A stretch of 64,000 nucleotides of DNA, from NCBI GenBank assembly GCA_030390025.1, contig CM059452.1:8990001-9054000 (forward strand), in the 5' to 3' direction. The translations under genes and the position numbers were made by a program. The notes beneath the pieces are model-generated. The model made no database searches. It worked only from the letters and a program-made list of their open reading frames with translations, and was not told the origin of the DNA. Positions 4,921 through 44,759 of this stretch are shown piece after piece; position 1 is the first letter of the stretch, and each line of letters starts with the position of its first letter. The DNA is from Squalus acanthias (taxonomy: Eukaryota).

Positions 4921-7318
4921 AGGAGTAGGCCATTCGGCCCTTCGAGCCTGCTCCGTCATTCAATGAGATTATTGCTGATCTTCTGCCTCAACTCCATTCA
5001 CCGGCCCTATCGCCATATCCCTTGATGCCCTTACTCGTCAGAAATCTATCGACTTCCGTTTTGAATATACCCAATGACTGAACTTCCACAGCCCTCTGGG
5101 GTAGAGAAATCCAAAGATTTACCACCCTCTTTTTGAAGAAATTTCTTCTCATCTCAGTCCTGAATGGCCTACCTTTTGTTTTGAGGCTGTGGCCCCTGGT
5201 TCTAGACTCCCTAGCCAAGGGAAACATTCTCCCAGCATCCATCCTATCAAGCCCTGTAATAATTTTGTATGCTTCAATGAGATCCCCTCTCATTCTTCTG
5301 AATTCAAGAGAATACAGGCCTAGTTTACTCAATCTCTTCTCATACGACAGTCCCGCCATCCCAGGAATCAATCTCGTGAACCTTCGTTGCACTCCCTCTA
5401 TGGCAAGTTTATCCTTCCTTAGGTAAGGAGACCAAAATTGTACACAGTACTCCAGGTGTGGTCTCACCAAGGCCCTATATAATTGGAGTAAGACTTCTTT
5501 ACTCCTATACTCAAATCCTCTTGTAATGAAGGCCAGCATACCATTTGCCTTCCTAATGGCTTGCTGCACCTGCACATTCACTTTCAGTGACTCATATACA
5601 AGGACACCCAGGTCCCTTTGAGCATCTGCATTCCCCAATCTTTCACCATTTAGGAAATACCCTGCCTTTCTGTTTTTTCTACCGAAGTGGATAACATCAC
5701 ATTTATCCACATTACATTCCATCTGCCATGTTCTCGCCCACTCACTGAGCCTGTCGAGATCCCCTTGAAGCCTCTTCACATCCTCTTCGCAACTGACACT
5801 GCCACATAGCTTTGTATCATCAGCAAATTTGGAAATGTTACATTTAGTCCCCTCATCCAAATCATTGAGATAGATTGTGAATAGCTGGGGCCCAAGCACC
5901 GATCCTTGCGGTACCCCACTAGTCACAGCCTGCCATCCTGTAAAAGACCCGTTTATCCCTACTCTTTGTTTTCTGTCTGTTAACCAATTCTCAATCCATG
6001 CTAGTATATTACCCCCAATTACATGTGCCCTAATTTTGTTCACCAACCTCTTGTGTGGGACCTTATCGAAGGCCTTCTGAAAATCCAGATACACCACATC
6101 TACCGGTTCCCCTTTGTCTACTCCACTAGTTACATCCTCAAAGAACTCCAATAGGTTTGTCAAACAGGATTTCCCTTTCATAAATCCATGTTGACTCTGC
6201 CCAATCTTACTATTAGTTTCTAAGTACCCAGTTATTGCATCCTTTATAATAGATTCCAGCATTTTCCCAACTACTGATGTGAGGCTAACAGGTCTGTAGT
6301 TCCCCGTTTTCTCTCTCCCTCCTTTCTTAAATAGCGGGTTTACATTTGCTATCCTCCAATCTGCAGGAACCGTTCCAGAATCTACAGAATGTTGGAAGAT
6401 GACAACCAATGCGTCCACTATTCCAATGGCCACCTCTTTCAAAACCCTAGGATGTAGGTCATCCGGTCCTTGGGATTTATCGACTTTTAGTCCAATTAAT
6501 TTTGCTAGTACTGTTTTCTTACTAATAATAATTTCTTTAAGTTCCTCTTTCTCGTTACACCCTTGGCTTTCTCGTATTTCTGGGAGGTTTTTGTGTCTTC
6601 CTCCGTGAAGACAGAAACAAAGTATTTATTTAATTTCTCAGCCATTTCCTCATTCCCCATTATAAATTCTCCCTGTCTCTGACTGTAAAGGACCTACATT
6701 TACCTTCGCCAGTCTTTTCCTTTTCACATACCTATAGAAACTTTTACAATCCGTTTTAAATGTTTTGCTAGTTTGTGCTCATATTCCATTTTCCCTTTCT
6801 TTATCAATTTCTTGGTCCCCCTTTGCTGATTTCTAAAAAGATCCCAATCCTCAGGCTGACCGCTTTTTCTGGCAACTTTATAAGCTTCCTCCTTTGACTT
6901 AATACTAGCTTTAATTTCTTTTGTTAGCTATGGTTGGATCACTTTTCCTTTTGGTTTTTTATGCCCGAGAGGAATATATGTTTGTTGCAAATTATGCATT
7001 ATTTCCTTGAATGTTAGCCATTGTATGTCCACCTTCATACCTTTTAGTGTAGTCTCCCAATCTACCATGGCCAACTTGTCCCTCATTCCCTTGTAGTTTC
7101 CTCTGTTTAGATAGAAGATCTTAGTTTCAGATTGGACTACATCACTCTCAAGCTTAATGCAAAATTCAATCATATTATGGTCACTTGTCCCTAAAGGCCC
7201 CTTTACCACAAGATTATTGATTAGCCGTTTCTCCTTACACAGTACCAGATCCAGAATAGCCTGTTCCCTGGTTGGTTCCTCCACATACTGATCCAGGAAA
7301 CCTTCTCGCATGCATTAC
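4921..7318 (-). mobile_element. 5'-truncated CR1 LINE inserted in the minisatellite (RT ORF 4988-6442)
   Basis: 484-aa ORF with [31 protein letters not shown] and FADDT motifs. Endonuclease C-terminal part (SDHN) at 6928-7311. Confidence 0.95.
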
Positions 7319-7324
7319 AGGCTG

Positions 7325-10300
7325 GGTCCATTGCAGTCATAAATGAGACAGGATCTAGTGTAATATAAACAGTGACATGGTCTAGTGCAGTAATAACTGA
7401 GACAAGGCCTACTGTAATATATACAGAGACTGGGTCCATTGAAGTAAAAACTGAGACAGGGTCTAGTGTAATATAAACAGAGACAGGATCTAGTGTAAGA
7501 AAACAGAGACAGGGTCCAGTGTAATATAAACAGAGACAGGGTCCAGTGTAACATAAACAGAGACAGGGCCTAGTGTAATATAAACAGAGACAGGGTCCAG
7601 TGTAATATAAACAGAGACAGGGCCTAGTGTAATATAAACAGAGACAGGGCCTAGTGTAATATAAACAGAGACAGGTTCTAGTGTAATTTAAACAGAGACA
7701 GGGTCTAGTGTAATATCAACAGAGACAGGGTTAGGTGTAATATAAAAAGAGAAAGGGTCAAGTGTAATATAAACAGAGACAGGGTCTAGTGTAATGTAAA
7801 CAGAGACAGGGTCTAATGTAGTAATAACTGAGGCCGGGTCTAGTTTAATATAAACAGAGACAGGGTGTAGTGTAATATAAACAGAGACAGGGTCCAGTGT
7901 AATATAAACAGAGACAGGGCCTAGTGTAATATTAACAAAGACAGGGCCTAGTGTAATATAAACAGAGACAGGGTCTAGTGTAATTTAAACAGAGACAGGG
8001 TCTAGTGTAATATCAACAGAGACAGGGTCTAGCGTAATATAAACAGAGACAGGGTCAAGTGTAATATAAACAGAGACAGGGTCTAGTGTAATATAAACAG
8101 AGACAGGGTCTAGTGTAGTAATAACTGAGGCCGGGTCTAGTGTAATATAAACAGAGACAGTGTCTAGTGTAATATAAACAGAGACATGGTCCAGTGTAAT
8201 ATAAACAGAGACAGGGCCTAGTGTAATATAAACAGAAACAGGGCCTAGTGTAATATAAAGAGAGACAGCGTCTAGTGTAATATAAACAGAGACATGGTCT
8301 CGTGTAATATAAACAGAGACAGGGTCTGGTGTAATATAAACAGAGACAGGGTCTAGTGTAATATAAACAGAGACATGGTCGATTGTAATATAAACAGAGA
8401 CAGGTCCTAGTGTAATATAAACAGAGACAGGGTCTAGTGTAATATAAACAGAGGCAGGCTCTAGTGTAATATAAACAGAGACATGGTCTAGTGCAGTAAC
8501 AACTGAGACAGGGCCCAGTGTAATATAAACAGAGACATGGTCTAGTGTAATATAAACAGAGGCAGGGCCTAGTGTAATATAAACAGCGACAGGGTCTCGT
8601 GTAATATAAACCGAGACATGGTCTAGTGTAATATAAACAGAGACAGGGCCTAGTGTAATATAAACAGAGACAGTGTCTAGTGTAATATAAACAGAGACAG
8701 GGCCTAGTGTAATATAAACAGAGACAGGGTCCAGTGTAATATAAACAGAGACAGGGCCTAGTGTAATATAAATAGAGACAGGTCCCAGTGTTATATAAAC
8801 AGAGACAGTGTCTAGTGTAATATAAACAGAGGCAGGCTCTAGTTTAACATAAACAGAGACATGGTCTAGTGTAATATAAACAGAGACAGGGCCTAGTGTA
8901 ATATAAACAGTGACAGGGTCTAGTGTAATATAAACAGAGACAGGGTCTAGTGTAAGAAAACAGAGACAGGGTCCAGTGTAATATAAACAGAGACAGGGTC
9001 CAGTGTAATATAAACAGAGACAGGGCCTAGTGTAATTTAAACAGAGACAGGGTCCAGTGTAATATAAACAGAGACAGGGCCTAGTGTAATATAAACAGAG
9101 ACAGGGCCTAGTGTAATATAAACAGAGACAGGGTCTTGTGTAATTTAAACAGAGACAGGGCCTAGTGTAATATCAACAGAGACAGGGTCTAGTGTAATAT
9201 AAACAGAGACAGGGTCAAGTGTAATATAAACAAAACAGGGTCTAGTGTAATATAAACAGAGACAGGGTCTAGTGTAATATAAACAGAGACAGGGTCCAGT
9301 GTAATATAAACAGAGACAGGGCCTAGTGTAATATAAACAGAGACAGGGCCCAGTGTAATATAAACAGAGACAGGGTCTAGTGTAATATAAACAGAGACAG
9401 GGTCTGGTGTAATATAAACAGAGACAGGGTCTAGTGTAATATAAACAGAGACATGGTCTAGTGTAATATAAACAGAGACACGGCCTAGTGTAATATAAAC
9501 AGAGACTGTGTCTAGTGTAATATAAACAGAGACAGGGCCCAGTGTAATATAAACAGAGACATGGTCTAGTGTAATATAAACAGAGACAGGGTCTAGTGTA
9601 ATATAAACAGAGACATGGTCTAGTGTAATATAAACAGAGACAGGGCCTAGTGTAATATAAACAGAGACAGGGTCTAGTGTAATATAAATAGAGACAGGGC
9701 CTAATGTAATATAAACAGAGACAGGGTCTAGTGTAATATAAACTGAGACAGGGTCTAGTGTAATATAAACAGAGACAGGGCCTAGTGTAATATAAACAGA
9801 GACAGGGTCTCGTGTAACATAAACAGAGACAGGGTCTAGTGTAATATCAACAGAGACAGGGTCTAGTGTAATATAAACAGAGACAGGGTCTAGTGTAATA
9901 TAAACAGAGACAGGGTCTAGTGTAATATAAACAGAGACAGGGTCTAGTGTAACATAAACAGAGACCGGGTCTAGTGTAATATAAACAGAGACAGGGTCTA
10001 GTGTAGTATAAACAGAGACAGGGTCTAGTGTAATATAAACAGAGACAGGGTCTAGTGTAACATAAACAGAGACAGGGTCTAGTGTAATATAAACAGAGAC
10101 AGGGTCTAGAGTAATATAAACAGAGACAGGGTCTAGTGTAATATAAACAGAGACAGGGTCTAGTGTAATATAAACAGAGACAGGGCCTAGTGTAATATAA
10201 ACAGAGACAGGGTCTAGTGTAATATAAACAGAGACAGGGTCTCGTGTAATATAAACAGAGAAATGGTCTAGTGCATTAATAACTGAGACAGGGCCCAGTG
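7325..10300. repeat. 27-bp minisatellite, right part (about 3 kb)
   Basis: Same 27-bp unit, roughly 110 copies. Confidence 0.97.
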
Positions 10301-10459
10301 TATGAACTACACAACTGTCTGTTTATGACACACTGAGGAAACATTTTGGATTGAGGAATTGCTATCCTCCTTTATCGGCCCTCACAGTAACTTTAGTCCA
10401 TGAAACACAGTGACACCGTGAGTTCGCTGTCAGTCTCCCGTGCCGTAACAGCTGCTGTT

Positions 10460-11269
10460 TATAGTGGCTCTTGCCCTAAATACACAGAAGTATTTCCTGG
10501 AATCCCCAGCTGTCACCTGTGAAACCGTTATACTGACGGCTCTGAAAATGTTGGCCAAAGATGAGGTGCTGTAGCGCCATCCAGTGGCGAAAGGAGGACA
10601 CTGGAATCCTGTCTGTGAAACCTTGTTTCTCAATTTATTAATGATTTAACAGGATTATTATTGTACCAGTTTATTATTGTGATTATTTTGTTATTATTAC
10701 TGTAACTGCTGCCATTTTATTGCATTGCTTTTACTATCGTTGCTATTTGATATTAATTCTTAGATATCTTATGTCAGTTTTCTGGTCTGCCCAAGTTACG
10801 AACACAATACCTGTTCATTTGCATAAACTAGATGAACTTCACGTTAATAATTCCACAGTTGGTAATTTCTAATCATTCAATATGGAGATCAATCACAATT
10901 CAGTAACTACATGAATCAAAGATGATTCATATTTGGCTGCTGAGGAGTAATCTGAATGTTGAATCCAAACGATATATATTCCTCATCAAGGTAATTTTTT
11001 TTTAGCAATTTTGCGCATCCGTATCCCCAGTACCAAAGAAGAGCCGGCAGTCCAGTTCAGCCCGTTCCCCTTCCCGAGACACCACCTGCTCAGCGGGTGA
11101 GATCCGATCCTCACACCGAACGGCTGTGAACAAAACAAACTCACTCAACAACCACAAGCTATTAAGAGATGAATGAAACAAGGCGTCTGAGCTGATAAAT
11201 GAACTCACACAACATCAACAGCACCAGGGCTCCAACTGGAAACAGGTCTTTGCCGAGGTTCCTGTTCAT
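10460..11269 (-). pseudogene. Disrupted TCR V pseudogene (leader 11269-11209, V 5' part from 11123, V 3' part about 10620-10460)
   Basis: Leader MNRNLGKDLFPVGALVLLML|GTGAGT, then SVRCEDRISPAEQVVSREGERAELDC with WY out of frame. About 400 bp of AT-rich insert, then SITVSQVTAGDSRKYFC. No good RSS. Confidence 0.7.
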
Positions 11270-12473
11270 GACGATGAAGATGGACAAAAGGCGGATCAAT
11301 CCGGGTCTGATTTCCAGACTAGACCTTGCTGCCGAGTCCCGGACTTTCAATGGTTGGGAGGGTGAGTAAAGGGGAGAGCTTCACTTTCACCCCGTACAGT
11401 GTGGGACTGATGGGCGACATTCTCACCAATCGGTCTATTATGGGATGTTGTCACCTGACGTCATTCATAGTCCCACTCGGGGATTGGCTGTCTGTCAAAC
11501 CAGAGACCCCTTGAACCGTCACTGGGAAGGAACTCCACTGGTCGCTGTGTGTAACGACAGATTAAATTGTTCAGGAAGATTTGATCTCTGTCGTATTTCT
11601 ATCTCAAATGGTCATCGTGGTCTTAGAATCATAGAATTTTACAGCATCATCAGCTTTTTCCAAACTTTCTGTCTCTGAACCCCTAAATCTTTCTCCTTAT
11701 TTACTCCTTTAAATTAATATTTACCTCATATTTCCTCCTCTTCTCCGTCCTCTTTATAGTTACCGTGATGTCCGTCCTGCCTTTGGTCTCGATGCTTTCG
11801 TTGTATAAGCAAACAGAAGCGAAAATTTTTGACTGACCTTTAAGTCCTGTATCAATGTGAAAACCCCTGACAGACAGGCGCGCCACCTGGTGGTGGCTTC
11901 GGGTAAATGCGTATTTGTCGAATTGGTCAAACTAAGTATTCACTCTCTGAATTCTTTGTATTTTGTTCCTATTTATTTTACTGTGAACAGGATGTTTACT
12001 GCAGGGAGAAATTTAACCACCACGGAGCTAAATATTGTAGTAACTTCCATTTTCATGTATTTCATTTGAAGTGACACTAAATAATAAAACTGAAAACGCC
12101 ATAAAGTATTATATAAGGTTTTATTTTAATTCATTCTCTGGATGTCGGCGTCGCTGGCAAGGCCGGCATTTATTGACCATCCCTAGTTGTCCTGACGACT
12201 GTGTGTAGCTTCCTAAGTGAGTATTTAATAACGTGACACCACCATATTGATGTATCCCAGTGAAATCCCGGTTGCTGGGTAACCCAGTCCCTCAGGGATT
12301 CCTACAAGTGCGTCCACTTAAAGTGGCGACACCATTAACCCTTTCTTTAACCCTGTAGATCTTTGTTAGATGACTCTAAATGTCAATACTGCAATTCTGA
12401 ATGTTTCTTTTCTAAAGGGAGACCCAAGATGGTGAGGTTAAAAGTCCTGATCTCGATGATGGAGATCGACAAG

Positions 12474-12885
12474 ACTTATTGTACAGGATGTCTCACCGTT
12501 TGCCCCAATGTGCGTGTTCGCACAGTAATACACCCCGGAGTCTGGAGCCGCGGTTTCCCGCACACCGAAAATGAAATCGAACCCTCCGCTCCCGTCGGTT
12601 GTATTACCCTGATAGGTGGAGATTGTAAATTCCGGTGCCCAGCCCTGTATTTGCCGGTACCACAAAATCCTATCGCTGCTCCTGGTGGTCGCACCGCACC
12701 GGATTTTAACCGATTGTCCCTCCACCGCCGTCACCTGCTCGGTTTGGGAAATCCCTCCTCACCACGGACCCCTGCTAATACAAGACAAACATGCAACACG
12801 CTCAATAGGTTTATTTTACAATCAATCTTCTTCATTCAGAATAGTCACATGACAATAAAAAGGTGTCGGTTCCAATTCGATGCAT
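12474..12885 (-). pseudogene. TCR V pseudogene with intact-looking 23-RSS
   Basis: ISQTEQVTAVEGQSVKIRC...LWYRQ...DSGVYYCA. Frameshift near the exon start (12771) and an apparent internal deletion. RSS CACATTG(12512-12506) + 23 + ACAATAAGT. Weak leader near 12885. Confidence 0.82.
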
Positions 12886-14433
12886 CGTATTTCAGGATAT
12901 TGGTTGTGAAATTCCCGCGATACTGATTGCCTGAAAATCCGTCTGTATCACTAATCAATTCGGTAACCGATTTTTAAATTTGCCAGCGACTGGCAAAGGC
13001 GGCCGCCTCTTATATCTTTGTTCCTCAGCATCCAATTATCAGACGGCTGACGTGTTTCTCACCGACAAAAGCCGATATTCGGGCTGGTTGGACTTTGTAA
13101 ACGTCAAATGCGATTGGTGCCTGTTCACTCTGGTGGGGGAAATTGGGTCCTTGCAATGACTCCGAAGCCAACCTTTCACCCTCTGGGACTCTGTGTTCAA
13201 ATGCAGCCGAGAGAATGGGGATGGAGCCTCCTTTTCTGGTGGGATGACTGGGGTGAGCAGTTTGTCAGACAGATTAATTGATAAGGTACCCGGTGCAACC
13301 GAATACAAGGGAGAACTGAACATTAGGGGTCCCGTTGAATGGATTCACCCACCGAGAGAGAGAAAAATACAGACCATTATGGTCGATGAAACTTAATCTA
13401 GAAAAAGTGTGTGAAGTATTGTCCATGAGAAGGGACAATGAAGAACATACATACCTCATGAGTGGTGTTGAAATAGCTACGGGTGAATTTAAAAGGGTGC
13501 TGGGAGTGTAAAGGGCCCACATGTGCAGGGAATGCTTTGAAGAACACATGGAATACTCGCCAGAATCTGGGGTCACTTTACAAGGGATGTTCACATTGAC
13601 AGGGTCAAACGGATTTATTATCTGTTGGCGCCGTTTGTTTAATTTCAGCATTCAGCCGTACAACACACAGACAATACACGTGCAGGGAAATTACTTCAAT
13701 AATAATGTACCCTTTGGGAACTATGTAACTGCGCTTCTCTATAAGAACCGTGTTACCCCCAGGCTCGCGAAAGATTTGCAGTTATTATATTAGCTACAAG
13801 CATCTTCATCACTGGGCTGGGATTAAACTATGGGGGTGGAAACAGATGTCGGATAATATAACACAATCCCAACCAATTCCGAATTGTAATTATTAATGAG
13901 AAATGTATTTAATTTGAAACTGTCAACTGGAGGTGACAAGCTCATTTACAGTCAAGTAATGCGTGAAATTGTGACTCTGTCAGTGACGATATAATATCAA
14001 CGAACAGTAATCCAATAGTTGAAAAGGGATTTCTTGTTAATTTATATTTAAAAGAATGTCAGTCTGTATTGGTTAATGCAACGTGACCGGCGGTGGGAAG
14101 CAGCTGCCTGTCAGCGCCACCTGGTGGCCGGGTTTAAGTGGTCCTCTTTGAGCTGATCTCAGAACATTGTTCACTATTTGTGCTCTCTCTGTTCACATTT
14201 GCTTCAGGATGACGCGGCGATGCTCTGACGCATGCGCTGTACCGCTCCGCCAATCCCAATCAATGCTGAGCCCGGAGCTCCACTCACAGGTTCACTTTTT
14301 GAGTCCCAGAGACCCGTGTGTAACGGGCACAGTGTGGTGTTGGGCTCAGATTGATACACAACAGCCTTCTCCAGGAGCCTCTCTCGGCCTGGATCTGCCG
14401 GCGATCACTTTACACAAATCGATAAGATCCGAC

Positions 14434-14937
14434 ATGAAGCTGAGCTTCACTTTAGTGATTATCTCCCTGGATTTCATACTCTTCCCTCCGTGTGAGTGTG
14501 GTCACAATCTCTGTCTATCGGGAATATTTTACATCTTATATGTATTTTTATTGTTTATTTATTATTATTTTATGTTATGTTATATTGTATTATATTACAT
14601 TCTAAAATTATATTATATTAATTACGTTGACTTAATTATATATTATATTACATATTCGTCTCAGATGCCACTGGCAGTGAAGAGGTATCGCAGTCTCCCG
14701 AGTCAGTGGTTGTTACCGAGGGAGACACTGCATCGTTGACCTGTTCCACCACAGTCGCAGGACAGGTCCTACAATGGTGCAGACAATTCCCGAGGCGAAC
14801 CGTGCAGCACCTGGCGACCGGTAACAGTGATCAGAGCAGGATCGCGGCTCGCTTCAGTTCAGTAGAGAAGCGCAGTGCTCTGAATGTTAGCGACGCTCGA
14901 GTGACAGACACCGCCACCTATTTCTGTGCGGTGGAGA
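14434..14937 (+). CDS. TRAV/TRDV: TCR alpha/delta V gene segment, open frame (leader 14434-14491, V exon 14665-14937)
   Basis: Leader MKLSFTLVIISLDFILFPP|GTGAGT. V exon SEEVSQSPESVVVTEGDTASLTC...LQWCRQ...DTATYFCAVE. Near-consensus RSS follows. Confidence 0.88.
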
Positions 14938-14976
14938 CACAGTGCAGCAAAGATCAGCAGAGACCGTACAAAAACT
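14938..14976 (+). promoter_or_regulatory. 23-RSS
   Basis: CACAGTG + 23 nt + ACAAAAACT. Confidence 0.95.
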
Positions 14977-15061
14977 CTAGGCTGTGCCATTATCAGAGCG
15001 CTGGGTGTTTTATAACACTGTCCCTGGGAACCGCTCCCAGTCTCCCAGTAGGTGAAGTCTG

Positions 15062-15200
15062 AGTTCTGACGAAAGGTCATCGACCTGAAACGTTAACTCT
15101 GTTTCTCTCTTCACAGATGCTGCCTGACCTGCTGAGTTTCTCCAGCATTTTCTGTTTTCATTTCAGATTTCCAGCATCTGCAGTATTTTCTTTTTGTATC
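15062..15200. repeat. Short interspersed repeat (Penelope-like terminal fragment common in sharks)
   Basis: GACCTGAAACGTTAACT...GATGCTGCCTGACCTGCTGAG...CCAGCATCTGCAGT, recognised from memory. Confidence 0.55.
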
Positions 15201-15540
15201 AGTGTCCCAGGATCCGTCTGAATTAACGGTTCTGGAAGAACAGACCGTAATACTCAGCTGTAGTTTCTCCACTTCCGATAGTTTGCCCTTCCTCTACTGG
15301 TCCTTCATTATCCCGGGTTAGCTCCGAGATATTTCCACAGGAGATATCGCTTGGGGTGGGGAGATAATTCTCTGTATTTCCCAGATTGGTTCTCCGCTGA
15401 TTTGGACAAAGACAAAGACACGAATACAACAGTTTGATATAGCAACCTGACAGTCTGTGGTCTTCGTGACTTTGGGATCAATCTAACCCCACAGATAAAA
15501 GCACCAAAAAGCACTTCAAGAAGGTGTAAATGCTCGCTGA

Positions 15541-15899
15541 GGCTTTTGTGCGGGGCTTTTGTTTTTATCTGACGCTATGCCTCACTGCACAGTTATAGAC
15601 CGCCCCGTCCTCCATACTCAGGCCGCTTACATTTAGGTAACCGTACTTTCTAGACTTGCCAACAGCCGCCAGATATTGCCCTGAGATTTCGACTTCCTTC
15701 AGTGCTGCTGCTTTGCTATTTACCCAGCTTGGAGGCTGTGCCGGTTTCTGGCAATACAATTGCATGGCGTAAACATCTAGGACTGTATATTCGCAATCTA
15801 ACTGCACCGAACCAACTTTGCATCGATCTGATAACCTGTGTTGTTTAAGATAATCCACTACTTACTGTCCAACACTGCCGCCAATATTATTAGCAACAT
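15541..15899 (-). pseudogene. TCR V pseudogene with inactivated heptamer
   Basis: Leader MLLIILAAVLD|GTAAGT. V has lost the conserved W (QLYCQK) and YYC reads YNC. RSS CATAGCG + 23 + ACAAAAGCC. Confidence 0.8.
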
Positions 15900-16609
15900 A
15901 CCTGACTGAATTCTCACGGTGACTTGGAATTGAATGAGGCCGAGATCGAGAAGGGGTGCGGTAACCCGGGCTGTTCAGCTCATTGTTCCACCCACACACT
16001 GCAAGGGACGGACCCATTGTGACATCACTGAGGTTACAATTGCTATTCGCTATGGTGTTTTCATCGCGTGACTTTCTAATTACCATGCTTGAATTTGGCG
16101 CCCTCTGCTGGTGGATTCTGTTCAATCCGATTTAGAATTAGATCATTGAGGGGGTTTAATATTTATAGATTATATATAAAAGCATCTCTGCAAACTATTG
16201 TGTCTCTGAACTCTAGATTACAGCTGTGTAATCTCTTTATTTCCCTACCACTCTACTCGCTCCCAGTCATTTCATCAGTGAGCAGCAGCAGGTAGACCAC
16301 AGACCTCTCAAGACCCAAGGCCCTTTCCGCTCCATCATCTCCGAGTGCAGCTGAGCGGCGCCGCGCACTTTCTGTGGTTACACAGAGCTCAGAATTTGCT
16401 CAGTTTTGAGTCTGAGGCAGCCCCACCCTCAGCTTCCGTTTGCTGCTCTCGCTCTGACACGCCTTGCCTGCCTTGTGCTATTGGAGAGATGTTTGCCGCT
16501 GCTCCCTGTTTGGCATTGGTTGGATCAGCCATGCAGTGGTGTGGGGATGGGTAATTCTGATCCGAGAGAGGATTTCCCGGATTGCAGAGTTACAGACTCA
16601 GGGAGCGCC

Positions 16610-17109
16610 ATGTAAAACCGTCTCGCACCGCTCCTCGTCATTATACCACTTCTCAGTAAGTATTACCTGCCCAGTAAAAATCCATTGTCTCCCTGACTGC
16701 TGTGACCCAGATGTTATGATTTATAAAATGATGATGATGATGACTATTATTGTTATTTTGTGTCAGAATGGAGCCGCCAAGACACAGTGGAACAACCGGT
16801 TCCTGAAATGACGGTTGAAGAGAAAATTTATGCCACACTAAACTGCACCTCGTAAAGAAGCGCTTCTACCCTTTATGTGTTCTGGTACAGTCAGCACCCC
16901 GAGCAGCTTCCACAGTACGTGGTTTATATCATTGCAGGAAAGTAAACCGGAACCCCGACTTCACTGACCGATTCTCTTCTACGTGTAATAAAAATACCAA
17001 GATTACTGAGCTAACGATCAGCAACGCCCTGATCTCCGACACCGCCATGTATTTCTGTGCTATGAGCCCCACACTGCTGCAGAGATATAGCGGATCCCGT
17101 AAAAAACCC
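16610..17109 (+). pseudogene. TCR V pseudogene (leader 16610-16655, V exon 16767-17069)
   Basis: Stop at leader codon 2. V exon QDTVEQP...LNCTS*...FWYSQHP has stops and a frameshift, then DTAMYFCAMS. Degenerate RSS CACACTG + 23/24 + (T)AAAAAACC. Confidence 0.85.
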
Positions 17110-17309
17110 AGTCTGAGAATTCCAGTTAGTGCTCACCAGAGGGCGCTCTCACACCGATAAACAGAAGCGACAATTCAGTCTCCACAATGAGAGTCACAGG
17201 GACCTTCTTAAAAGGCCAATGAAACACAACACACAAGAACCGGTGAGGTCCACCAGCGGAATTATATTAGTTGGTGATTTCAACTATCATTTATAATAAA
17301 AATCACTAA

Positions 17310-17985
17310 GTTCTAAGCTCATGGTGTACAGAGCAGCAGATATACCCGCCGTGCTGTATGCCTCAGAGATATGGACCATGTACAACAGGCACCTCAAAGC
17401 ACCGGAGAGGTACCACCAACACTGCCTCCGCAAGATCCTGCAAATCCATTGGCAGGATAGGCGCACCAACGTCAGTGTTCGCACTCAGGCCAACATCCCC
17501 AGCATCGAAGCTTTGACCACGCTCGATCAGCTCCGATGGATGGGTCACATTGTCCGTATGCCCGATACAAGACTCCCAAAACAAGCGCTCTACTCGGAGC
17601 TCCGACACGGCAAGAGAGCCCCAAGTGGACAGAGGAAACGCTTCAAGGACACCCTCAAAGTCTCCTTGAAAACGTGCAACATCCCCACTGACACCAGGGA
17701 ATCCCTGGCCCAAGATCGCACAAAGTGGAGGAGAAGCATCCGGGAAGGCGTCGAACACCTCGAGCCTCTTCGCTGGGAGCAAGCGGAAGCCAAGCGCAAG
17801 CAGCGCAAGGAGCGCACGTCAACCCAAACACCCCACCCACCCGCCCCTTCAACCACTGTCTGCCCCACCTGTGACAGAGACTGTAGGTCCCGCATTGGAC
17901 TCATCAGTCACCTGAGAACACATTTTTAAGGTGGAAGCAAGTCATAATCGGTTCCGAGGGACTGCCTAAGAAGAAGAAGAAGATA
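17310..17985 (+). mobile_element. RTE-clade LINE 3' fragment with C-terminal C2H2 finger and (AAG)n tail
   Basis: ORF LYASEIWT...LRWMGHIVRMPDTRLPK...CPTCDRDCRSRIGLISHLRTH, then an AAGAAGAAG tail. Confidence 0.88.
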
Positions 17986-19505
17986 ATAAAAAATACATTT
18001 CCCAAATGCATCTGTGCCTCCTTAACTCACGTTTTGTCTTTCGATGCCCTTTCCGTGCCTGCCAGTCCCTTTTCATCCCCTGTCTCCACTCTTTACTCAT
18101 CATGGAATGAAATTCCATCTTCCAGTCTTAAGGTTAACGATGTAAAACCTTTGCGGCTGCTGGGTATATTAATTCAAAACCGCTCCAACCCAGCTTCCCA
18201 TAAACAGGAACTACAGACAGGTCAGTGAATAAAGACAGGATTCCTCGCACCCTGTCCAGCGACATCGGAACAGTTCTCAGAATATCCACCAGAGGGCGGC
18301 ATGTCACAATATTCCTTTTATGGATCAGACCCCGGGCAGTGAGTTAAATGCTGTTTCTGCAACGATTGTGTAAATTTTGGAATGACTTGAAGTTTAATAT
18401 TTGAAATCCTCACCGGGCTGGTTCGGCACATCAGAAAATAATCAACACAAAAAGACATCCATCATATTGAAGGATTGGTTTCTGATACAACCCAGTGGGA
18501 AGGGTGTAGAAGATGGGGAAAGAACTATCAAAATGTGAGTGAAAGACACAGCCTGAGATCTGATTTCTGAAGCCATTAACTGTACCGATGACGGAGATCG
18601 ATGTTAAAGGGGCGAAAGACAAACCGAAACCGCCTGTATTGTGCTTGTTTTTCTGCGCCACATCCTTTTCTAATTTGAGTGAAAGTTGTGAGGACAGGTT
18701 TTCACTCCCTGCTGGTGTTGAGCTCTTGTTAACGAGAACCCGCCCTACACCTCACCCTGGGAGTTTGAAGCCGCTCCCCCCGCCCCTCCTCTGCTGCCGG
18801 GAACATCAGCGGGAAAGTGCTGAAACGCGTCGACGGGCCGCTCCCTCCATTCTCTCTCATTGAAAATTTAAAATCTGAAAATTATGTATCAGTAAATTAA
18901 CCATTACAGGCACAACGAAGGTAACAGCTCGTCAGATATAATTAAAACATTTTTAATGCAAACCACAGAAGGGAAACGCTGGTTAAGTTACAGAGAGAGT
19001 TTATTTTTATGTCTGTTCAATTGTTTGTTCAGTAACAGCAGATACCATCGCTCTAATATCACAGATCAATAAATCACTCCGATAAAATAAGGAATCATTG
19101 TTAGTTCACTAGTTAACTGACCCGTAAGTGAAAGCTCACAGCAGTCACGGCTACCAGTGTCCCTGACGGTGAAACTAACGGAATTCTGGAGAAAGAATTG
19201 ACCCCAGAATAAACCAAATCCATTAACAATCCTGAGTTTTTTGGTCACAAACTCGACACGGGTTCAATCCCACCCCGGTCTCTAAAAGTGGAACCATTCC
19301 CCTATAAGGACACTGACTGTAGCCCAGCTCGGGTGTTTCCATTCACTGGCAGCCAGCTCACCACCTACCGGTCTCACAGCACCACTGGGGACACAAGGAA
19401 GTGAGGTCAGAGCATCCTGAGACACGACAGCAGGATATTGAGGGCGGGGCTTAGAACGGGTGTCTTCAAATATCCAACCCCACTTTTACAGAGCGGACAG
19501 CGACA

Positions 19506-20008
19506 ATGCGGCTACTCAGCATATGGTCTGTGTGGGGGGCATTTCTGACAGGTAATTTTGGACCAAACACATCTCATCTTTTCTCTCATTTCTAACATGG
19601 TTTGAATCTGAATTTTAAACACCCGCCGGTCTGATCTTTTCCTGATTGAACATGTTTTTCAGATCTGAGTCTTGGAGATTCTGTCACTCAGCCGCTGTCC
19701 TCAGGAGTTAAGACTGAAGGATAAGCGGTGACTTTAAACTGTACCTATGATACTACACAGAGCGACTATTCTTTATACTGGTACCGGCAACACCCAGACA
19801 CACAGCCCGAGTATATACTGAGGAAAGGCTCGAGCGGTTTTGAAGATAAAGCTGATTTTGCTAAAACCCGTTTCTCTGCTGAGCTCCAGACCTCGACTAA
19901 ATTCACCAGTTTAACCATCTCCGGGCTGCAGCTGACTGACGCTGCCGTGTATTACTGCGCCCTGAGACTCACAGTGATGGAAAGCAGTCTCAGCCCTGTA
20001 CAAAAACT
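19506..20008 (+). pseudogene. TRAV/TRDV: TCR alpha/delta V segment with a single premature stop and near-consensus 23-RSS (leader 19506-19551, V exon 19663-19969, RSS 19970-20008)
   Basis: Leader MRLLSIWSVWGAFLT. V exon GDSVTQPLSSGVKTEG*AVTLNCTY...LYWYRQ...DAAVYYCALR with TAA at 19722-19724. RSS CACAGTG + 23 + ACAAAAACT. Confidence 0.92.
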
Positions 20009-21029
20009 GCCATTGGACTGTAGGGCGGAGCTCCTGTGTGTTGGGGTTGTGTGGAATCGCGGGCAGATGCAGCCACAATGAGCAGCGCGCTGTCAGGCGC
20101 TCAAACACACACCGAGAGGAAACCAAATTAACCTCGGATCAAACTGTCACCCAACTGTTTCCAGGAGCGGCCGAGAAACAAACTGCAGAATCCAATCGGC
20201 CCGAAAGATGGATCACAGAATGAACCGACCGGTTAAACTGTCCTTTCTGCTTCTGATCAGCTGTTTTCCCTTAAAGTCATAGGATCGATGTTCCGATCAG
20301 CTCCGAGAAAGAGGTTGCTGACAGCGCCAGGAAATTCCTGCTGGTTGCGCCGGTAATAGGACATGATCTGGTTCCCACATTCCGCCTGTGTGTGTCATTT
20401 CATCCCGTGTATTCCTTCGAACCGGATATTTCCTGTGTTGAGCTGCGCGGGAAATCCTCCGACCTGTTACTTTCTCTTAGTTTCACCTAAAGATAGCTGC
20501 AACTTTCCAAACTTGGAAACAGAGGAGTTGAAAACACGCAACCGAATGGGAGTGGACATGAAAGAGAAACAATGTTGAATGTTTCTCGAAATCTGTGGGG
20601 AAATAGAACGATTTTTCTATTCTTAATGTTCCGGTTTTTTGCTGCGTCAATTAACTTCCGTGCATTAGCTAACCTGAAAATAATCTGACCCAGTACTAAT
20701 AACCTGTAAGGAGCGCTCTGCCTGTGTGGCAGTTTGCCCGAAGGAGGCTGGAATAAATTACCATTCAGTGGTCCAATTGGCTCACAGCCTTTCAATAATT
20801 TAAGGAGCCATAAAGGACAGAGCTTCCCACAATGCACAGCTGGCCAGACAAGGCCCAATGGAGACCACGGGCCGCGCTGCACTGTGGGAGCACTGTTCGC
20901 ACATGCGCAACTCGCTAACTACTTTAATCGTCGCGATCTCTCTTTATCTCTGTCGCATATTTTCTCCATTTTATCAGAAAACGTGACTGTTTCTTTGGTG
21001 GGAATTGAAGTCACACGTCACACCACAAT

Positions 21030-37320: not shown

Positions 37321-37350
37321 TTAATTCATTAATTTTAAAATTTGGAAGAC

Positions 37351-38706
37351 GTGCTCTGTATCACTGTGTGTCTGTAATCACCGCCATGTTAAGTATTGTG
37401 AACTCTCCCCTTGCTCTGTATCACAGTGTGTCTGTAATCCCCACCATGTTAAGGATTGTGAACTCTCTCCGTGCTCTGTATCACTGTGTGTCTGTAATCC
37501 CCACCATGTTCAGGTTTGAGAACTCTCTCCGTGCTCTGTATCACTGTGTGTCTGTAATCCCCACCATGTTCAGGTTTGTGAACTCTCTCCGTGCTCTGTA
37601 TCACTGTGTGTCTGTAATCCCCACCATGTTAAGGATTGTGAACTCTCTCCGTGCTCTGTAACACTGTGTGTCTGTAATCCCCACCATGTTAAGGATTGTG
37701 AACTCTCTCCGTGCTCTGTATCACTGTGTGTCTGTAATCACCGCCATGTTAAGTATTGTGAACTCTCCCCTTGCTCTGTATCACTGTGTGTCTGTAATCC
37801 CCACCATGTTAAGGATAGTGAACTCTCTCCGTGCTCTGTATCACAGTGTGTCTGTAATCACCACCATGTTAAGGATTGTGAACTCTCTCCGTGCTCTGTA
37901 TCACTGTGTGTCTGTAATCCCCACCATGTTCAGGTTTGTGAACTCTCTCCGTGCTCTGTATCACTGTGTGTCTGTAATCCCCACCATGTTCAGGTTTGTG
38001 AACTCTCTCCGTGCTCTGTATCACTGTGTCTGTAATCCTCCACCATGTTCAGGTTTGTGAACTCTCTCCGTGCTCTCTATCACTGTGTCTGTAATCCCCA
38101 CCATGTTCAGGTTTGTGAACTCTCTCCGTGCTCTGTATCACTGTGTGTCTGTAATCCCCACCATGTTCAGGTTTGTGAACTCTCTCCGTGCTCTGTATCA
38201 CTGTGTGTCTGTAATCCCCACCATGTTCAGGTTTGTGAACTCTCTCCGTGCTCTATATCACTGTGTGTCTGTAATCCCCACCATGTTCAGGTTTGTGAAC
38301 TCTCTCCGTGCTCTGTATCACTGTGTGCTGTAATCCCCAACATGTTCAGGTTTGTGAACTCTCTCCGTGCTCTCTATCACTGTGTGTCTGTAATCCCCAC
38401 CATGTTCAGGTTTGTGAACTCTCTCCGTGCTCTGTCACTGTGTGTCTGTAATCCCCACCATGTTCAGGTTTGTGAACTCTCTCCGTGCTCTGTATCACTG
38501 TGTGTCTGTAATCCCCAACATGTTCAGGTTTGTGAACTCTCTCCGTGCTCTCTATCACTGTGTGTCTGTAATCCCCATCGTGTTCAGGTTTGTGAACTCT
38601 CCCCTTGCTCTCTATCATTGTGTGTCTGTAATCCCCACCATGTTCAGGTTTTTGAACTCTCTCCGTGCTCTGTATCACTGTGTGTCTGTAATCCCCACCA
38701 TGTTCA
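37351..38706 (-). repeat. Tandem array of about 23 x 60-bp units derived from the adjacent V-segment RSS
   Basis: Unit CACAGTG-ATACAGAGCACGGAGAGAGT-TCACAAACC-TGAACATGGTGGGGATTACAGACA copies the RSS at 38707-38745 and its 3' flank. Confidence 0.93.
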
Positions 38707-38745
38707 GGTTTTTGTACGGCTCTCTCAGTGCTCTGTATCACTGTG
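38707..38745 (-). promoter_or_regulatory. Consensus 23-RSS of the supporting Vdelta
   Basis: CACAGTG + ATACAGAGCACTGAGAGAGCCGT (23 nt) + ACAAAAACC. Confidence 0.97.
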
Positions 38746-39042
38746 CTTTAGGTGGACTCAGTGCACAGTAATGCACAGCGGAGTCACTCAGTTGCAGTTT
38801 CGTGATGCTTAACCGGCTGATTTTCTTGGCAAGATCGACAGAAGCAGAAATTCGGCCCCCAGCAGCGTTTTCTATATTCCCCTCTCCTGAAGTGTGTCTC
38901 TGAAGCAGGTATTTTGGAGCCTGTCCTGGGGACTGACGGTACCAGTGTACTGTGTGCTGACAGATCCCTGAATATTCGCAGCTTAAAGTAACGGTGTCAC
39001 CGGCAGCAGAGGATTGTAGAGGCGCACCCTGTGACACGGAAT
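38746..39042 (-). CDS. TRDV: Leaderless NAR-TCR supporting TCR delta V segment
   Basis: CCCGCAG|AT TCC phase-1 acceptor directly at the mature N-terminus. DSVSQGAP...TLSCEYSGICQHTVHWYRQ...DSAVHYCALS with an extra CDR1 Cys. Consensus RSS, 3.2 kb downstream of a NAR-type VDJ. Confidence 0.88.
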
Positions 39043-39174
39043 CTGCGGGATTACAATGGGATATTGCTATTTATTTGGCCGCTGTTTACCGGGGACACTT
39101 GCCAATCACAAGAATAGTTCTGCCTCTCGCGGTAATGCGTTTCTTCATTTGAAGACTGTTCCAACTTTATTCAC

Positions 39175-39460
39175 TGTCATTGGCAAAGGAACCAGAGGGG
39201 CGGGGAGGGGCGCAGAGGAGAAATGTATTTACGCAGTCAGCCGTTGTGATCTGGAATGCACTGCCTGAAAGGGTGGTGGGAGCAGATTCAATAGTAACTT
39301 TCAACAGGAGATTGTATCAATACTGGAAAAGGAAAATTTGTCAGGGCTATGGGGAAAGAGCGGGGCGAGTGGAACTAATTGAATAGCTCCTTCAAAGAGC
39401 CGCACAGACAAGGTGAGCCGAATGTCCTCCCTCTCTGCTCTATGATTCTGTGATTTCTAT
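39175..39460 (+). mobile_element. CR1 3' end fragment
   Basis: ...TGGAATGCACTGCCTGAAAGGGTGGTG...CTATGATTCTGTGATTTCTAT tail. Confidence 0.75.
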
Positions 39461-41380
39461 TAAATTTCTGTTTTTATTTTTCTTGCTGAAAGACAAACCC
39501 GAAAAAAATAATAACCATTCTCCTCCTCACTGATCCCAGTGATGTTTGACCCAGACTGACCCGGCTGTGTGGTATCACTTGCGCACAGCAAGATCCAACA
39601 GAAAGCAGTGAGATTCATCAGCACCGATTGGTCCAAACTGACACTGAATATCTGTGGGTCAAAGTTCAATCTTTTACTGCAGTTTAACAGTTCACGGGAG
39701 CTCCTGTCTGCCTCTCGCTCTATTTGTCTCTTTTCTTCCATCAGTGGGACCCGTTTGTTCCATTTCACTTTAATTTGAATTATTTACAGTTAGTTTCATT
39801 TTATTTCTACATCTGGGTCGCTCACTTTGTGCTGTTTGTGGTTTTTTGCCAGCCTGAGAACTTGTCCCAAAGTCTCTCGGTTGTCGGTTGGGTTCAGTCT
39901 GTGCAGTTTCCGCAGTGGTTTTACTGTTACTCACTGGGAACTGGCTAGTCCGGCTCTCTGACAACTTCAATTCCTTCACCCATTGGCTGATTCTCTCCCG
40001 TGTTCTCCGGGCGGAATTTTCTCTGAGTTTTACATTAAAGAGTATCGCAGAACAGGAACAGGCGATTCGGCCGAACTGGTCTGTGCCGGTGTTTATACTC
40101 CACACGAGCCTCCTCCCACTCTAATTACCTCTTCCCACTCTGACCCCTGTGTCCCTCGATTCCTTTCTCCCTCCTGTATTTTTCAAGCCTCCCCTTAAAT
40201 GCATCAACGCTATCTTCTCCAACTGCTCCGTGTGGCAGCGAGTTCCACATTCTGACGCCTCTCTGTGTGAATAAATTCTTCCCAATGTCTTTATTTCTTC
40301 TGTTAGTGACTATCTTATATTTGTGGTCCTTGTTCTGGACTCACCCACAACGGAAACAGTTTCCCCACGTGCACCCTATCGAACCTCTTCATCATTTAAT
40401 CACCTCCATCAGTTCTCCTCGTTTTCTTCTCTTTTCCACAGAATAGACCCCCGCCTGTTCAATCTTTCCAGAAATGTGTGGATTGCTGCTGATGTCTTTT
40501 CTCAGGAGTGCAAGAAATCCAAAGTTGAGAAAAGGGCCGGGGCCCAATCGCAGCCCGTCCCTCCAGTAAATCTCACTGCCCCGGTGCCGGATTGTGCTTT
40601 GAACGGTCCAGAGACCGGTGTCTCCACATCCCCGCCCGGCCGGTGAAGGCCGATATTTATCTCCCTTTCGGTGAATGATTTCTTGCTGGGTCTAAATGGA
40701 CTTCCCTCCAGTCTGTACTTGTTCCCTCGGGTGTTCCTGCTCCCCTTTATAGGAACATTAGAACCTCGCCCTCACTCGCTCACTGCCCAGTGTTGTTTCA
40801 GTTAACAGTAACCATGGATACAGATAAATTACTGCAATCCGATCTCTCAAACATGAACATTAAATATTACAGAGAATTACACAGAATGTAGAGCACAGAA
40901 ACAGGCCATTGGGCCCAATCGGTCCATGCCGGTGTTACTGCTCCACACGAGCCTCCTCCCACCCCTACTCCATCTCACCCCATCAACAGATCCTTCGATT
41001 CCTTTCTCCCTCACCTACTTATCTAGATTCCCCTTCAATGTATCGATGTTATTCGGCTCAACTGCTCCTTGTGGCAGCGAGTTCCACATTCTGACCACTC
41101 TCTGGGTAAAGAAGTTCCTCCCGAATTCCCCATTGATTTATTAGGAAATATCTAACAATATAAAAATATAGAAAAGTGTCTGTAGTTCGGAGCTTGTACA
41201 TTTCGACTTAAACGAGAGACATGGAGGAAAAATGATTGTTTATACAAAAGCAATTGGAATAAATGTCAGATAAAATACAACTAATTTCAGTCACTGAGTG
41301 TCCAATAATGAAATGCCATCTAGACCTACAGGCGGATCTCTTGTATCTGAAGCCCCGCCGTGTTGTGCTCCACAGTTTCT

Positions 41381-41745
41381 GCCGCTGCAGGTATCGGACG
41401 GACCGCTGCAGGTATCGGACGGGCCGCTGCAGGTATCGGACGGGCCGCTGCAGGTATCGGACGGGCCGCTGCAGGTATCGGACGGGCCGCTGCAGGTATC
41501 GGACGGACCGCTGCAGGTATCGGACGGGCCGCTGCAGGTATCGGACGGGCCGCTGCAGGTATCGGACGGGCCGCTGCAGGTATCGGACGGGCCGCTGCAG
41601 GTATCGGACGGGACCGCTGCAGGTATCGGACGGACCGCTGCAGATATCGGACGGACCGCTGCAGGTATCGGACGGGCAGCTGCGGGTATCCTACGGGCCG
41701 CTGCAGGTATCGGACGGGCCGCTGCGGGTATCGGACGGGCCGCTG
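41381..41745. repeat. 21-bp CpG-rich minisatellite (CCGCTGCAGGTATCGGACGGG)n in the NAR-V/Vdelta intron
   Basis: About 17 near-identical tandem copies. Confidence 0.95.
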
Positions 41746-42246
41746 TAGTGTTGAGTTCCCTCTACCGGTAGTTCATTCACACTGCCCGGCTCGGACTGCA
41801 ATCTTCTGCCCAAGAGGGAGCTTTGTGACCCCCTGCCCTGGTCACAGGGACAGGCAGAGCTCCCTCAGTCACAGTTAACGCCCAGAGCGGAGGCCGGAGC
41901 CTGGACAATCTGCGCTCATTTAAACCAACTGGGGATCAGAGTGAGAGTCCGAGATGTTCATGGGATCCCCGAGGTTCCCGTTAAACCAATGATGGTCCAG
42001 ATGAGTTGAAACCCCCCAGACTGCCTGCTCCGTGGGGGTCTCACACATCTTCTCTCCGGACTCACACCAGGACCCGACCACGGCTCATATTCTGCTCCCG
42101 AACCTAAAACTGCAATGGAAAATCTCCCTGAGAAAACCGCTCTGTTTTACTTTGAAGGGATTGAGGTGATACTGATCTTAATAATAAACTGACGGTAAAC
42201 ATTAACCGGGACAGTCTGTAACACGGCGGGGTTTGGAGTCACTTAC

Positions 42247-42798
42247 CGGCTGTGACAGTCACCACCGTCCCAGATCCATCCACATATTGATAATCATCCA
42301 CGCGTCCCCCCAGGAGGTTCCAGGGTCTGTACCCGTACTCAGCTTTACAGTAATAGGTGGCGCTGTCTTCAACTCGCACATCCCGAATTTCCAGCGAAAA
42401 TTTCTTTTCTGCCTTATTCGTAGACACAACAAATCGTCCTCCGCTCGAGATCCGCTCCCGCTCTGCCCCGGTCTCGGTTTGTCTGAAGAAATGACCATTG
42501 CGTAAAGGATAATCCCTATAACCAACATAGAAAACGCAGGTGATGGTGAGAGACTGACACTCCTCCCTGGTTACCGCTGGCGGGGTCTGTGTCACTGACT
42601 GACTGAAAGAGCCTGGAAATTAAACAGAGAGAGTTTAATGGGCCATCAGAGCCGAACCACACAACGGGGCTAAAACCCAGATAGTGTCCGCAATTCGGAT
42701 GGACCCGGGCAGCTTTATGTTAAATCCACACAATGTTTGTTTGATCGGTACTCACGGGGTAAACAGACACACAGGGTGAAAACAAGGAGGATTCCCAT
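42247..42798 (-). CDS. NAR-TCR V domain, pre-joined V(D)J (leader 42798-42756, VDJ exon 42612-42247)
   Basis: MGILLVFTLCVCLP|RSFSQSVTQTPPAVTREECQSLTITCVFYVGYRDYPLRNGHFFRQTETGAERERISSGGRFVVSTNKAEKKFSLEIRDVRVEDSATYYCKA-EYGYRPWNLLGGRVDDYQYV-DGSGTVVTVTA|GTAAGT. NAR hallmarks are the CDR2 deletion, ISSGGRF, YYCKA and DGxGT J motif. Extra FR1 Cys; no internal RSS. Confidence 0.9.
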
Positions 42799-44759
42799 CG
42801 TTCTGCTGCCTGGAGCTGATGGTTTATATGACGGGGAGCTGGAGACTGCAGCCCTGGACTGCTCTGGGAGACTGTACATCAGAGCTGGAATTTAGAGGGT
42901 CGAGTTAATTAGCACAGCTCGGTGCCCCGGAGATCATTGATGGGCCTCACGGTCCCCGGATCTCTGGCTGTGTGTTGTGTGAATAAGCGACAGGTTTAAA
43001 TAAGGAGCTGCAGTTTTCTGGCCCTTCATTGGTTCTCTGAGGCCGATGTGAAGGCCCCTCCCACATTAGTCTGATGTACAGGGGGGGACTTGTTCTGTCA
43101 GCAGAGGCTGCCGCTGTCCTTTGCCCCGCAGTAATGAGCTGGGAGGTCGGTTCACGTGTTTTATTGTGTGGTGTTTATTGCGGGTAGAATGTGGGCCCAG
43201 GACACCGGGAGAATCCCCCGCTCTTATTCCAATAGTGCCGGGGATTCTTTAACATCCTGCTGAACGGGCTGGCGGGACCTCGGTTCAGCGTCTGATCGAA
43301 GGACGGCGCCGCAGACCCTGCAGCACTCCCTCAGTCCAGCAACTGAGTGTTAGGTTACAATTTGAGATAGTCCAGGGCTATTTTCAATATACAGGCAGAC
43401 ATAGATAATATACACAAAGGTTAAATCTCCCTGTAATTTAAACAAATGCTTCCTGCACCGTCCCCTTCTATGGTTTGCATTTAAAAAGAAGTTTCAATGA
43501 ATTAATGATTGATTTCAAGGTCTCTAATATTCAGAGTTTCCAGGTGCAGTGACAGAGAATGAAGCGACACTCGGAAGGCCAATCGACATTGGAGGAACTT
43601 TGTGCTTGGGGCTTGTTTTAAAGAGCACAGTCACTACTTTGTGAAATCTGTTAATTTTGTATAAACTGTCTCTGACCCAGCAACATACTCTGATCAAATA
43701 AACCCTGTTTACAGGCCGCGATCAAAGGATCCGGGACACTAACAGGGGAGATGTGCAAAGGGCCGCACAATATTGCAGGCAGGCACGGAAAGGGCATCAA
43801 AGGACCAAAGGCGAGTTAAGGGCCACAGACGGACTGTACGTCACACAATCACGGCCGACAGTGCGTCACAGAAACATGGCCGACTGTACGTCACGCAAAT
43901 GGCCGTGTTGGACAAAGCATTGAACCGTGACCTTAGCACCGCCGGATGGGCTACCGCAAGATCCTAAACTGCACTTGATTCAAAATGTGGCCTTTGTTTC
44001 AGCTCTGCGCAATACAACTGCCCACATCTCACATTTTAAATACCTTTTGCCTGCCTACCGATTCACAGTTCAGCATGGAACTGATCCCAAAAGCTAACAC
44101 AGTTTAGGCACCAGTTGCTCACAACACTGAACTGTGTCATGGGACTTGCAATAATGTATGGGGCACCGAAGATGGCCCACGCAGAACAATGATTACTTTG
44201 AGAATCAGGTTTGCTGCTAATTTTGAAGATATTGATCTTTCTGTTTGGTCTCACATTATATTCCATTAACTCCTTGTAGAGAACCATAATTAACATCAAA
44301 ACGATGATATTGTGGGAGTTATGATGAAACACTACAATGCCGCATTTACGCTGCAAGCATCAGTTGATGCAAATTTCAATAAATAAACATTCCTGCTCTT
44401 AAAATGGTAATCACGGAGCGCAGTTCTGAACAGAGTGTTAAGCTGCGAGTTTGGTGAGTGAGGGAGTGATTCTTAAAGGCTAATCTCTTTAAAAAAAAAT
44501 CCAGTCTTCTGTGCGTGCAATTAGCATTTAACTTAAATTTAAATTTACTGTTTCAAGTTTTAAGTTTCTTCCAGGCTTGGACAAGGCGAAGCAAGCTCTG
44601 TGCTGGAGAGCAGGTGAGAGTAATTAATTAATTAACTTGTCTAATCTGGTTCTGTAACTGCCAGAAAGATCACTTATTTAAATCTCAGCAGTATAAATAA
44701 GGGAGGCTAGAGTGCAGTTTGTCACGGAGTGCAGATCGGAACAGAGTGTTAAGCTGCGA

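Follow-up and report, generated by a model that had tools for sequence, protein, structure and literature searches.

A NAR-TCR cassette with an apparently germ-line-joined V-D-J exon in Squalus acanthias

The stretch of Squalus acanthias DNA analyzed here, referred to as the window, comprises 64,000 nucleotides of assembly GCA_030390025.1 (contig CM059452.1, hereafter C29; C29:8990001-9054000) and corresponds to a shark-type cluster of T-cell receptor (TCR) V genes. It contains a NAR-TCR cassette, in which an N-terminal NAR V domain is followed by a supporting V-delta domain. Coordinates are window positions unless a contig is named, and all cassette features lie on the minus strand. In the assembled DNA, the V, D, and J segments of the NAR domain were found to be joined in frame already, and the recombination signal sequences (RSSs) are gone across the V-to-J exon. 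A preliminary description of the same DNA had only implied this fusion, which we confirmed as the unusual feature of the cassette. On balance, we favor the reading that this is a NAR-TCR cassette whose V-D-J was fused by RAG in the germ line and that would need only the joining of V-delta to D-delta/J-delta to encode a delta chain with a fixed tip.

To dissect the junction we used the split paralogues of the same genome as a reference, which consist of a V with a 22-nucleotide (nt)-spacer RSS (21 nt in one split NAR V), one D flanked by two 12-RSSs, and a J with a 23-RSS. The V 3' end (42324-42346) is 1 base shorter than, and differs by 1 substitution from, its closest split counterpart, C29:6804510. 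It is followed by the last 9 nt (42315-42323) of the commonest split-cassette D, which is 13 nt long (4 nt trimmed), by 13 extra, apparently nontemplated bases that include 11 G or C and a run of six G (42302-42314), and by an apparently untrimmed NAR J with a phase-1 GT donor (42247-42301). The longest match of the 13-nt insert in the rest of the fetched DNA was 9 nt, and none of the 8 matches listed (of 30) was sited at an RSS. A second D was considered as the source of these bases and rejected, since the D-delta on contig C911 shares just 4 nt with them and there was no RSS-linked source among the listed matches. Trimmed coding ends, N addition, and lost signals are the mark of DNA-level V(D)J recombination by RAG and terminal deoxynucleotidyl transferase (TdT). 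Judged by its sequence, the junction is a product of such recombination with N addition, with RAG/TdT-like marks, and not a retrocopy. Germ-line-joined receptor genes of cartilaginous fish are recognized by the removal of the RSSs, processed coding ends, and retained introns, and all three were found here. The junction gave a single match in the assembly and is thus present in one copy. Logan contigs of runs X1, X7, X5, and X11 were aligned to 42225-42400, and all of them left 42297-42326 uncovered; those of X1 and X7 end even before 42326, a position that the split paralogue C29:6804510 would still reach with its V end, and filters remove some records, so the gap is uninformative. Among the runs aligned there, none was seen to bridge the junction.

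The assignment to NAR-TCR was supported by every sequence trait tested. In a tree of 36 V sequences, all from this genome, the NAR V grouped with its NAR-TCR paralogues (support, 0.99), with 77 to 86% amino acid identity to them versus 45 to 49% to IgNAR V. The supporting V formed a clade of its own with other supporting V genes and was at most 37% identical to leadered V genes. This phylogeny had been set beforehand as one of the refuting tests; the NAR V did not fall with IgNAR V, nor the supporting V with leadered V genes. The cassette has a leadered N-terminal V distinct from IgNAR V, a cysteine in framework region 1 (FR1; 42557-42559) without the canonical tryptophan, and a leaderless V-delta with a cysteine in complementarity-determining region 1 (CDR1; 38960-38962) and its own RSS. 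At the C-strand tryptophan position, alignment with two of this genome's own IgNAR V genes confirmed a phenylalanine (42488-42490). These agree with the described family traits, which include the FR1 (a-b loop) cysteine and the missing canonical tryptophan of the NAR V (PMC1845163; this and the other articles cited by PMC number were available in part, and statements taken from them refer to those parts). The best solved-structure matches of the NAR exon were VNAR domains (E, 1.4e-21). An IgNAR identity was rejected on the basis of the phenylalanine, the presence of one D per cassette and not several, and a downstream V-delta instead of Ig constant exons.

The preliminary description had made the complementary cysteine pair its headline. 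Both cysteines are present at the positions it gave; however, the pair is ordinary for the family, because each was found in 53 of the 54 pattern-matched sequences among 62 longer database homologues examined, and the real oddity is the prejoined exon. The 62 homologues also look joined. Several of them read through RSS-like residues, and we therefore interpret them as gene models in which the splicing runs across split segments, rather than as evidence for joining in other sharks. The two separate somatic rearrangements that characterize NAR-TCR can take place in 12 split paralogues of this genome but not here, where the assembled NAR V-D-J is already joined. The cassette thus descends from NAR-TCR but, lacking this trait, is a variant and not a standard member.

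We then considered the joined genes as a family. A DNA search for NAR-TCR V, in which 40 of 48 candidates were scored and two partial matches were left out, so that counts are lower bounds, identified at least 26 full V-region matches (25 by script parse and 1 separately). They comprise 12 split, 5 V-D-joined, and 6 V-D-J-joined genes and 3 that are frameshifted and truncated. The layout is not due to chance, as it is common to the 26 NAR V and 18 supporting V copies in the assembly. Eleven of the 26 genes are thus joined, with five different junctions (three V-D-joined and two V-D-J-joined), and in 9 of these 11 (9 of 10 excluding the window cassette) the junction is shared with another locus. 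Five V-D-J-joined copies form one family with best-match identities of 97.3 to 99.5% and substitutions inside the joined exon. These copies diverged within that exon, so the joining must have preceded duplication and hence taken place in the germ line. One V-D-joined pair is identical apart from a 1-nt deletion and could represent a haplotype duplicate. Each member of the five-copy family is preceded, at 4.6 to 6.7 kb, by another NAR V cassette, and the two have a single supporting V in common, whereas the window cassette is the only fully joined one that has its own supporting V-delta and is not behind another NAR V; the next NAR V, with a supporting V of its own, lies 44 kb upstream. Its junction differs from that of the five-copy family, and its V occupies its own branch. 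No unjoined twin of the window cassette was found in the assembly, where the nearest NAR V region and the nearest supporting V are 94.8 and 93.7% identical, respectively. Taken together, these data make it likely that the window join is inherited.

Several other members of this family have noteworthy structures. In five tandem cassettes (L031/L032, L033/L034, L035/L036, L037/L038, and L046/L047; C29 at 6.80, 8.60, 8.19, and 7.89 Mb, and contig C3620), a split or V-D-joined NAR V-D-J is followed by a joined NAR VDJ exon and then by one supporting V. The joined exon keeps its AG and phase-1 GT, and its own leader donor has been lost in two copies, which would thus be usable only as internal exons. 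Judged by this arrangement, such cassettes may possibly encode a chain with three V domains. Two database models from two other sharks, P0001 and P0002, have two NAR domains ahead of one supporting V. In the V-D-joined pair C29:7490067 and C29:8832896 (L051, L050), two bases palindromic to the intact D 5' end precede the D, as seen by eye, like hairpin P nucleotides. The coding ends of the split V genes C29:6887174 and C29:8867691 (L045, L044) terminate in the same 9 to 10 nt as the common D segment, although a normal V RSS comes next and the D is separate. At C29:7699108 (L040, L057) a split NAR V-D-J was found, and no supporting V was detected downstream within the fetched DNA.

The remaining elements of the window cassette are as follows. 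A TATA-like box (42823-42828), which may serve as a promoter element, lies approximately 25 nt 5' of the ATG, and a matching element is found 5' of most paralogues displayed. It is followed by a 43-nt phase-1 leader exon (42756-42798; GT donor at 42755) that is near-identical among paralogues, a retained leader intron of 143 nt (42613-42755), and the prejoined NAR V-D-J exon (42247-42612; 366 nt). The latter has an open frame, AG before and GT after it, phase 1, and no internal RSS. The 3.2-kb intron between J and V-delta (39043-42246) is homologous to the split-cassette intron and contains a 21-nt minisatellite (41381-41745). In the splice model, in which all junctions are phase 1, leader, NAR, and supporting V exons form a single stop-free frame of 235 amino acids. 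Canonical cysteine codons are located at 42538 and 42349 in the NAR V and at 38980 and 38767 in the supporting V. The exon limits, the phase-1 junctions, and the in-frame J-to-V splice of the preliminary description were reproduced base for base.

The supporting V-delta exon spans 297 nt (38746-39042). It had been described as leaderless, and indeed no leader-like exon was found within 1000 nt upstream, whereas the same test was positive for 3 of 3 control V genes. That description overlooked three features of the second V: a 9-nt deletion just after the acceptor, a histidine replacing a tyrosine at 38773-38771, and a new AG, private to this cassette, that lies 24 nt upstream of the canonical acceptor (39067-39068). 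The latter is a candidate acceptor that would preserve the frame and add 8 residues, including one extra cysteine. The exon gave one near-identical match in the assembly, and a contig of DNA run X3 matches 38672-38803 with 2 differences (130/132 nt), which indicates that the occurrence of this supporting V is not limited to the assembly. Its consensus 23-RSS (38707-38745) has a heptamer and nonamer without mismatches and a spacer of 23 nt. From this RSS derives a 60-nt minisatellite of 23.3 copies (37350-38745), in which the copies aligned after the first carry a 3-nt spacer deletion. These units keep their heptamers with the shortened spacer, and other cassettes show 1 to 4 RSS-like matches. 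The units are probably inert, although a role as RAG decoys is possible.

Candidate partners for the remaining rearrangement are located on C911, an unplaced contig of which 200 of 864 kb were scanned. The segment C911:557.9-586.3 kb contains a D with a 5' 12-RSS and a 3' 23-RSS, 14 J segments, a C exon, and a transmembrane exon; the 5' 12-RSS of the D is compatible with the 23-RSS of the supporting V. The D-J-C layout and the similarity to two database models, with no curated reference among them, suggest that the C exon is C-delta. The earlier claim that a single rearrangement remains is thus right on paper, given the fused NAR V-D-J and the compatible D-delta, 14 J segments, and C exon on C911. 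Upstream of this D-J-C cluster, C911:420-520 kb (L065-L075) contains at least 18 V genes resembling those of immunoglobulin (Ig) heavy chains, with exact duplicates among them; presumably these are TCR-delta-associated Ig-like V segments.

These elements suggest the following sequence of events. In a germ cell of an ancestor, RAG would have acted on a split cassette and an in-frame V-D-J become fixed. In a thymocyte, the supporting V-delta would join D-delta/J-delta, the one rearrangement needed; the NAR-TCR cassettes on C29 face both ways, which leaves deletion and inversion both possible. Transcription would start from the leader, and splicing would connect the leader, NAR VDJ, V-delta-DJ, and C-delta. 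The predicted product is a delta chain of three domains, with an antibody-like tip that is fixed and a supporting domain that varies, in which the two extra cysteines may form an interdomain disulfide, also putative in the literature. The chain would pair with a gamma chain, and the tip would bind antigen unpaired, in line with the working model of an unpaired tip and cysteine bridge (PMC3457774, PMC6795676). Skipping one step would avoid out-of-frame losses from that step and could favor the gene early in life; joined Ig clusters have been described as favored early in life (PMC4279169). Complex prediction for the two V exons as separate chains gave a score of 0.05, which is evidence neither way, and the AlphaFold2 model of the two-V protein P0012 of a relative (pLDDT, 83.5) retrieved only generic two-V antibody fragments in a fold search (TM approximately 0.4). 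A search for RNA runs holding the locus listed none, the best share of words being 0.36. If the join is inherited, the cassette is more probably functional than not.

A number of observations weigh against this reading. The C exon is on another contig than the cassette, so that D, J, and C are candidate partners only. Among the 18 copies, this supporting V shows the greatest divergence, with a mean identity of 91.4% versus 93.5 to 96.6%. As a consequence of the 9-nt deletion, its linker from J to the first cysteine comprises 21 residues, versus 24 in 50 of the 54 pattern-matched homologues and never fewer than 23. The histidine lies two residues before the second canonical cysteine, at what we take to be the tyrosine-corner position; tyrosine occupies this site in all 54 matched homologues and in the 17 remaining intact copies, and histidine was seen in one homologue, P0059, of the 8 missed by the pattern. 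The pyrimidine tract of the acceptor is weakened and the upstream AG competes with it. The synonymous excess among the changed codons of the supporting V (8 synonymous versus 10 replacement; P = 0.07 against a neutral share of 0.26) is weak evidence of selection. As to the join, the duplication argument does not directly cover the single-copy window junction, and the 13 GC-rich extra bases look like the work of TdT, for which germ-line-joined light chains gave little evidence (Lee et al., PMC2193156). The latter objection is softened by the five-copy family, in which approximately 13 nt separate V-like from J-like sequence and only 4 of them match D (by eye).

The features of the supporting V form the basis of the alternative that survives best, in which an accidental germ-line RAG fusion left a decaying relic whose supporting V has since drifted and which yields little or no surface receptor. 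In addition to divergence, short linker, histidine, and weakened acceptor, it is favored by the expansion of the RSS into a 23-copy minisatellite and by broken members of the family, since 4 of the 26 NAR V are frameshifted and 2 of the 5 other V-D-J-joined copies have no leader donor. However, neither the 18 codon changes of the supporting V nor the 16 of the NAR V have introduced a stop or frameshift; all six cysteines, the promoter box, the leader, the donors, and the perfect RSS are intact; and either acceptor keeps the reading frame. We regard decay as the less likely reading but as a real competitor. A second alternative holds that the germ line contains an ordinary split cassette and that the assembler caught the somatic join of one T-cell clone. 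The single copy of the junction and its long TdT-like insert, unlike the light-chain germ-line joins of PMC2193156, would be expected in such a case. Nevertheless, as no split twin was found in the assembly, the assembler would need to have chosen a rare read over the majority, the supporting V is unrearranged, and joins are common and duplicated in the family. Furthermore, the NAR V exon shows no higher density of private substitutions (6/266) than the promoter (3/129), J plus intron (8/240), or the intron before V-delta (12/293), so there is no mark of hypermutation; this test is weak because NAR-TCR is not reported to hypermutate (PMC5931798). Somatic capture thus appears improbable. Finally, retrotransposition of a rearranged transcript, the origin proposed for marsupial V-mu-j (PMC7615758), is largely refuted by the presence of the leader intron (42755-42613) and the 3.2-kb J intron, and an assembly chimera, conceivable in a region rich in near-identical duplications, would not place V, trimmed D, extra bases, and J in order and in one frame, so that either origin is hardly credible.

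Elsewhere in the window, four conventional V genes with 23-RSSs, two of them broken, are located at 2230-20010 on the plus strand. A lone 23-RSS-like site was found at 14328, and a V-like remnant lies at approximately 12400-12700 on the minus strand.

If an inherited, intron-keeping TCR join is real, germ-cell RAG activity would extend from Ig to TCR loci, and TdT may take part in germ-cell joining. In T cells using the cassette, the binding domain would be fixed and ready from the outset, in place of a randomly generated one. The literature consulted calls ligand recognition by NAR-TCR unknown, and a fixed tip with a unique CDR3 would offer one defined domain to express and screen; this CDR3 would also provide one primer site for tracking such T cells through development. 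More speculatively, at least five germ-cell V(D)J events with N addition may have occurred on TCR genes in this shark lineage, and the cassette might be a working inherited gamma-delta receptor with an invariant tip, a T-cell counterpart of neonatal IgM1gj that is favored early and supplies one definable single-domain binder. We consider this broader scenario possible but tentative.

Among known systems, the cassette shares with NAR-TCR the leadered NAR-type V with its extra cysteine and no C-strand tryptophan, the leaderless V-delta with its CDR1 cysteine, and, putatively, the use of shared D/J/C-delta, for which compatible segments on C911 are candidates (PMC1845163, PMC5931798, PMC6795676, PMC3457774). 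It differs in that two separate somatic V(D)J events are described there, whereas the assembled DNA of the window cassette already contains the product of the first, so that the tip would be invariant. No joined NAR-TCR was found in the literature searched or in one supplement of PMC3964593; primary NAR-TCR descriptions could contain it, so its absence from print is not established. In the accessible parts of the literature, the prejoined TCR genes named were only the marsupial V-mu-j (PMC7615758) and a newt V-J (PMC12698447).

Germ-line joining has been called peculiar to cartilaginous fish Ig genes (PMC5192425), and joining of shark Ig by RAG in germ cells has been described (PMC2193156). 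Such genes (NS4 light chains, IgM1gj, VD-J and VDJ clusters), known from sharks for a long time, resemble the window gene in cleanly removed RSSs, trimmed coding ends, and a mix of split, partly joined, and fully joined members per genome (PMC2193156, PMC4279169, PMC5192425). In contrast, the window gene is a TCR, carries a long apparent N insert, and still requires a second rearrangement. The five-copy family of the same genome likewise has an in-frame joined NAR V-D-J with a leader intron, but with another junction and V branch and in a position behind another NAR V with a shared supporting V. In the newt Pleurodeles waltl, a prejoined TRD V-J is similarly present in the TCR-delta locus and was reported to be expressed and frequent (PMC12698447); it is, however, a conventional V-J with no D, no leader of its own, no NAR domain, and no second V. 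Marsupial TCR-mu with V-mu-j is likewise a chain of three domains, in which one V is fixed and the other rearranges (PMC7615758, PMC3457774). In that chain the supporting domain is the fixed one, with an origin attributed to retrotransposition, whereas here the tip is fixed and the introns are kept. With an invariant tip and a variable supporting domain, the diversity layout of the window cassette would thus be the mirror image of that of marsupial TCR-mu.

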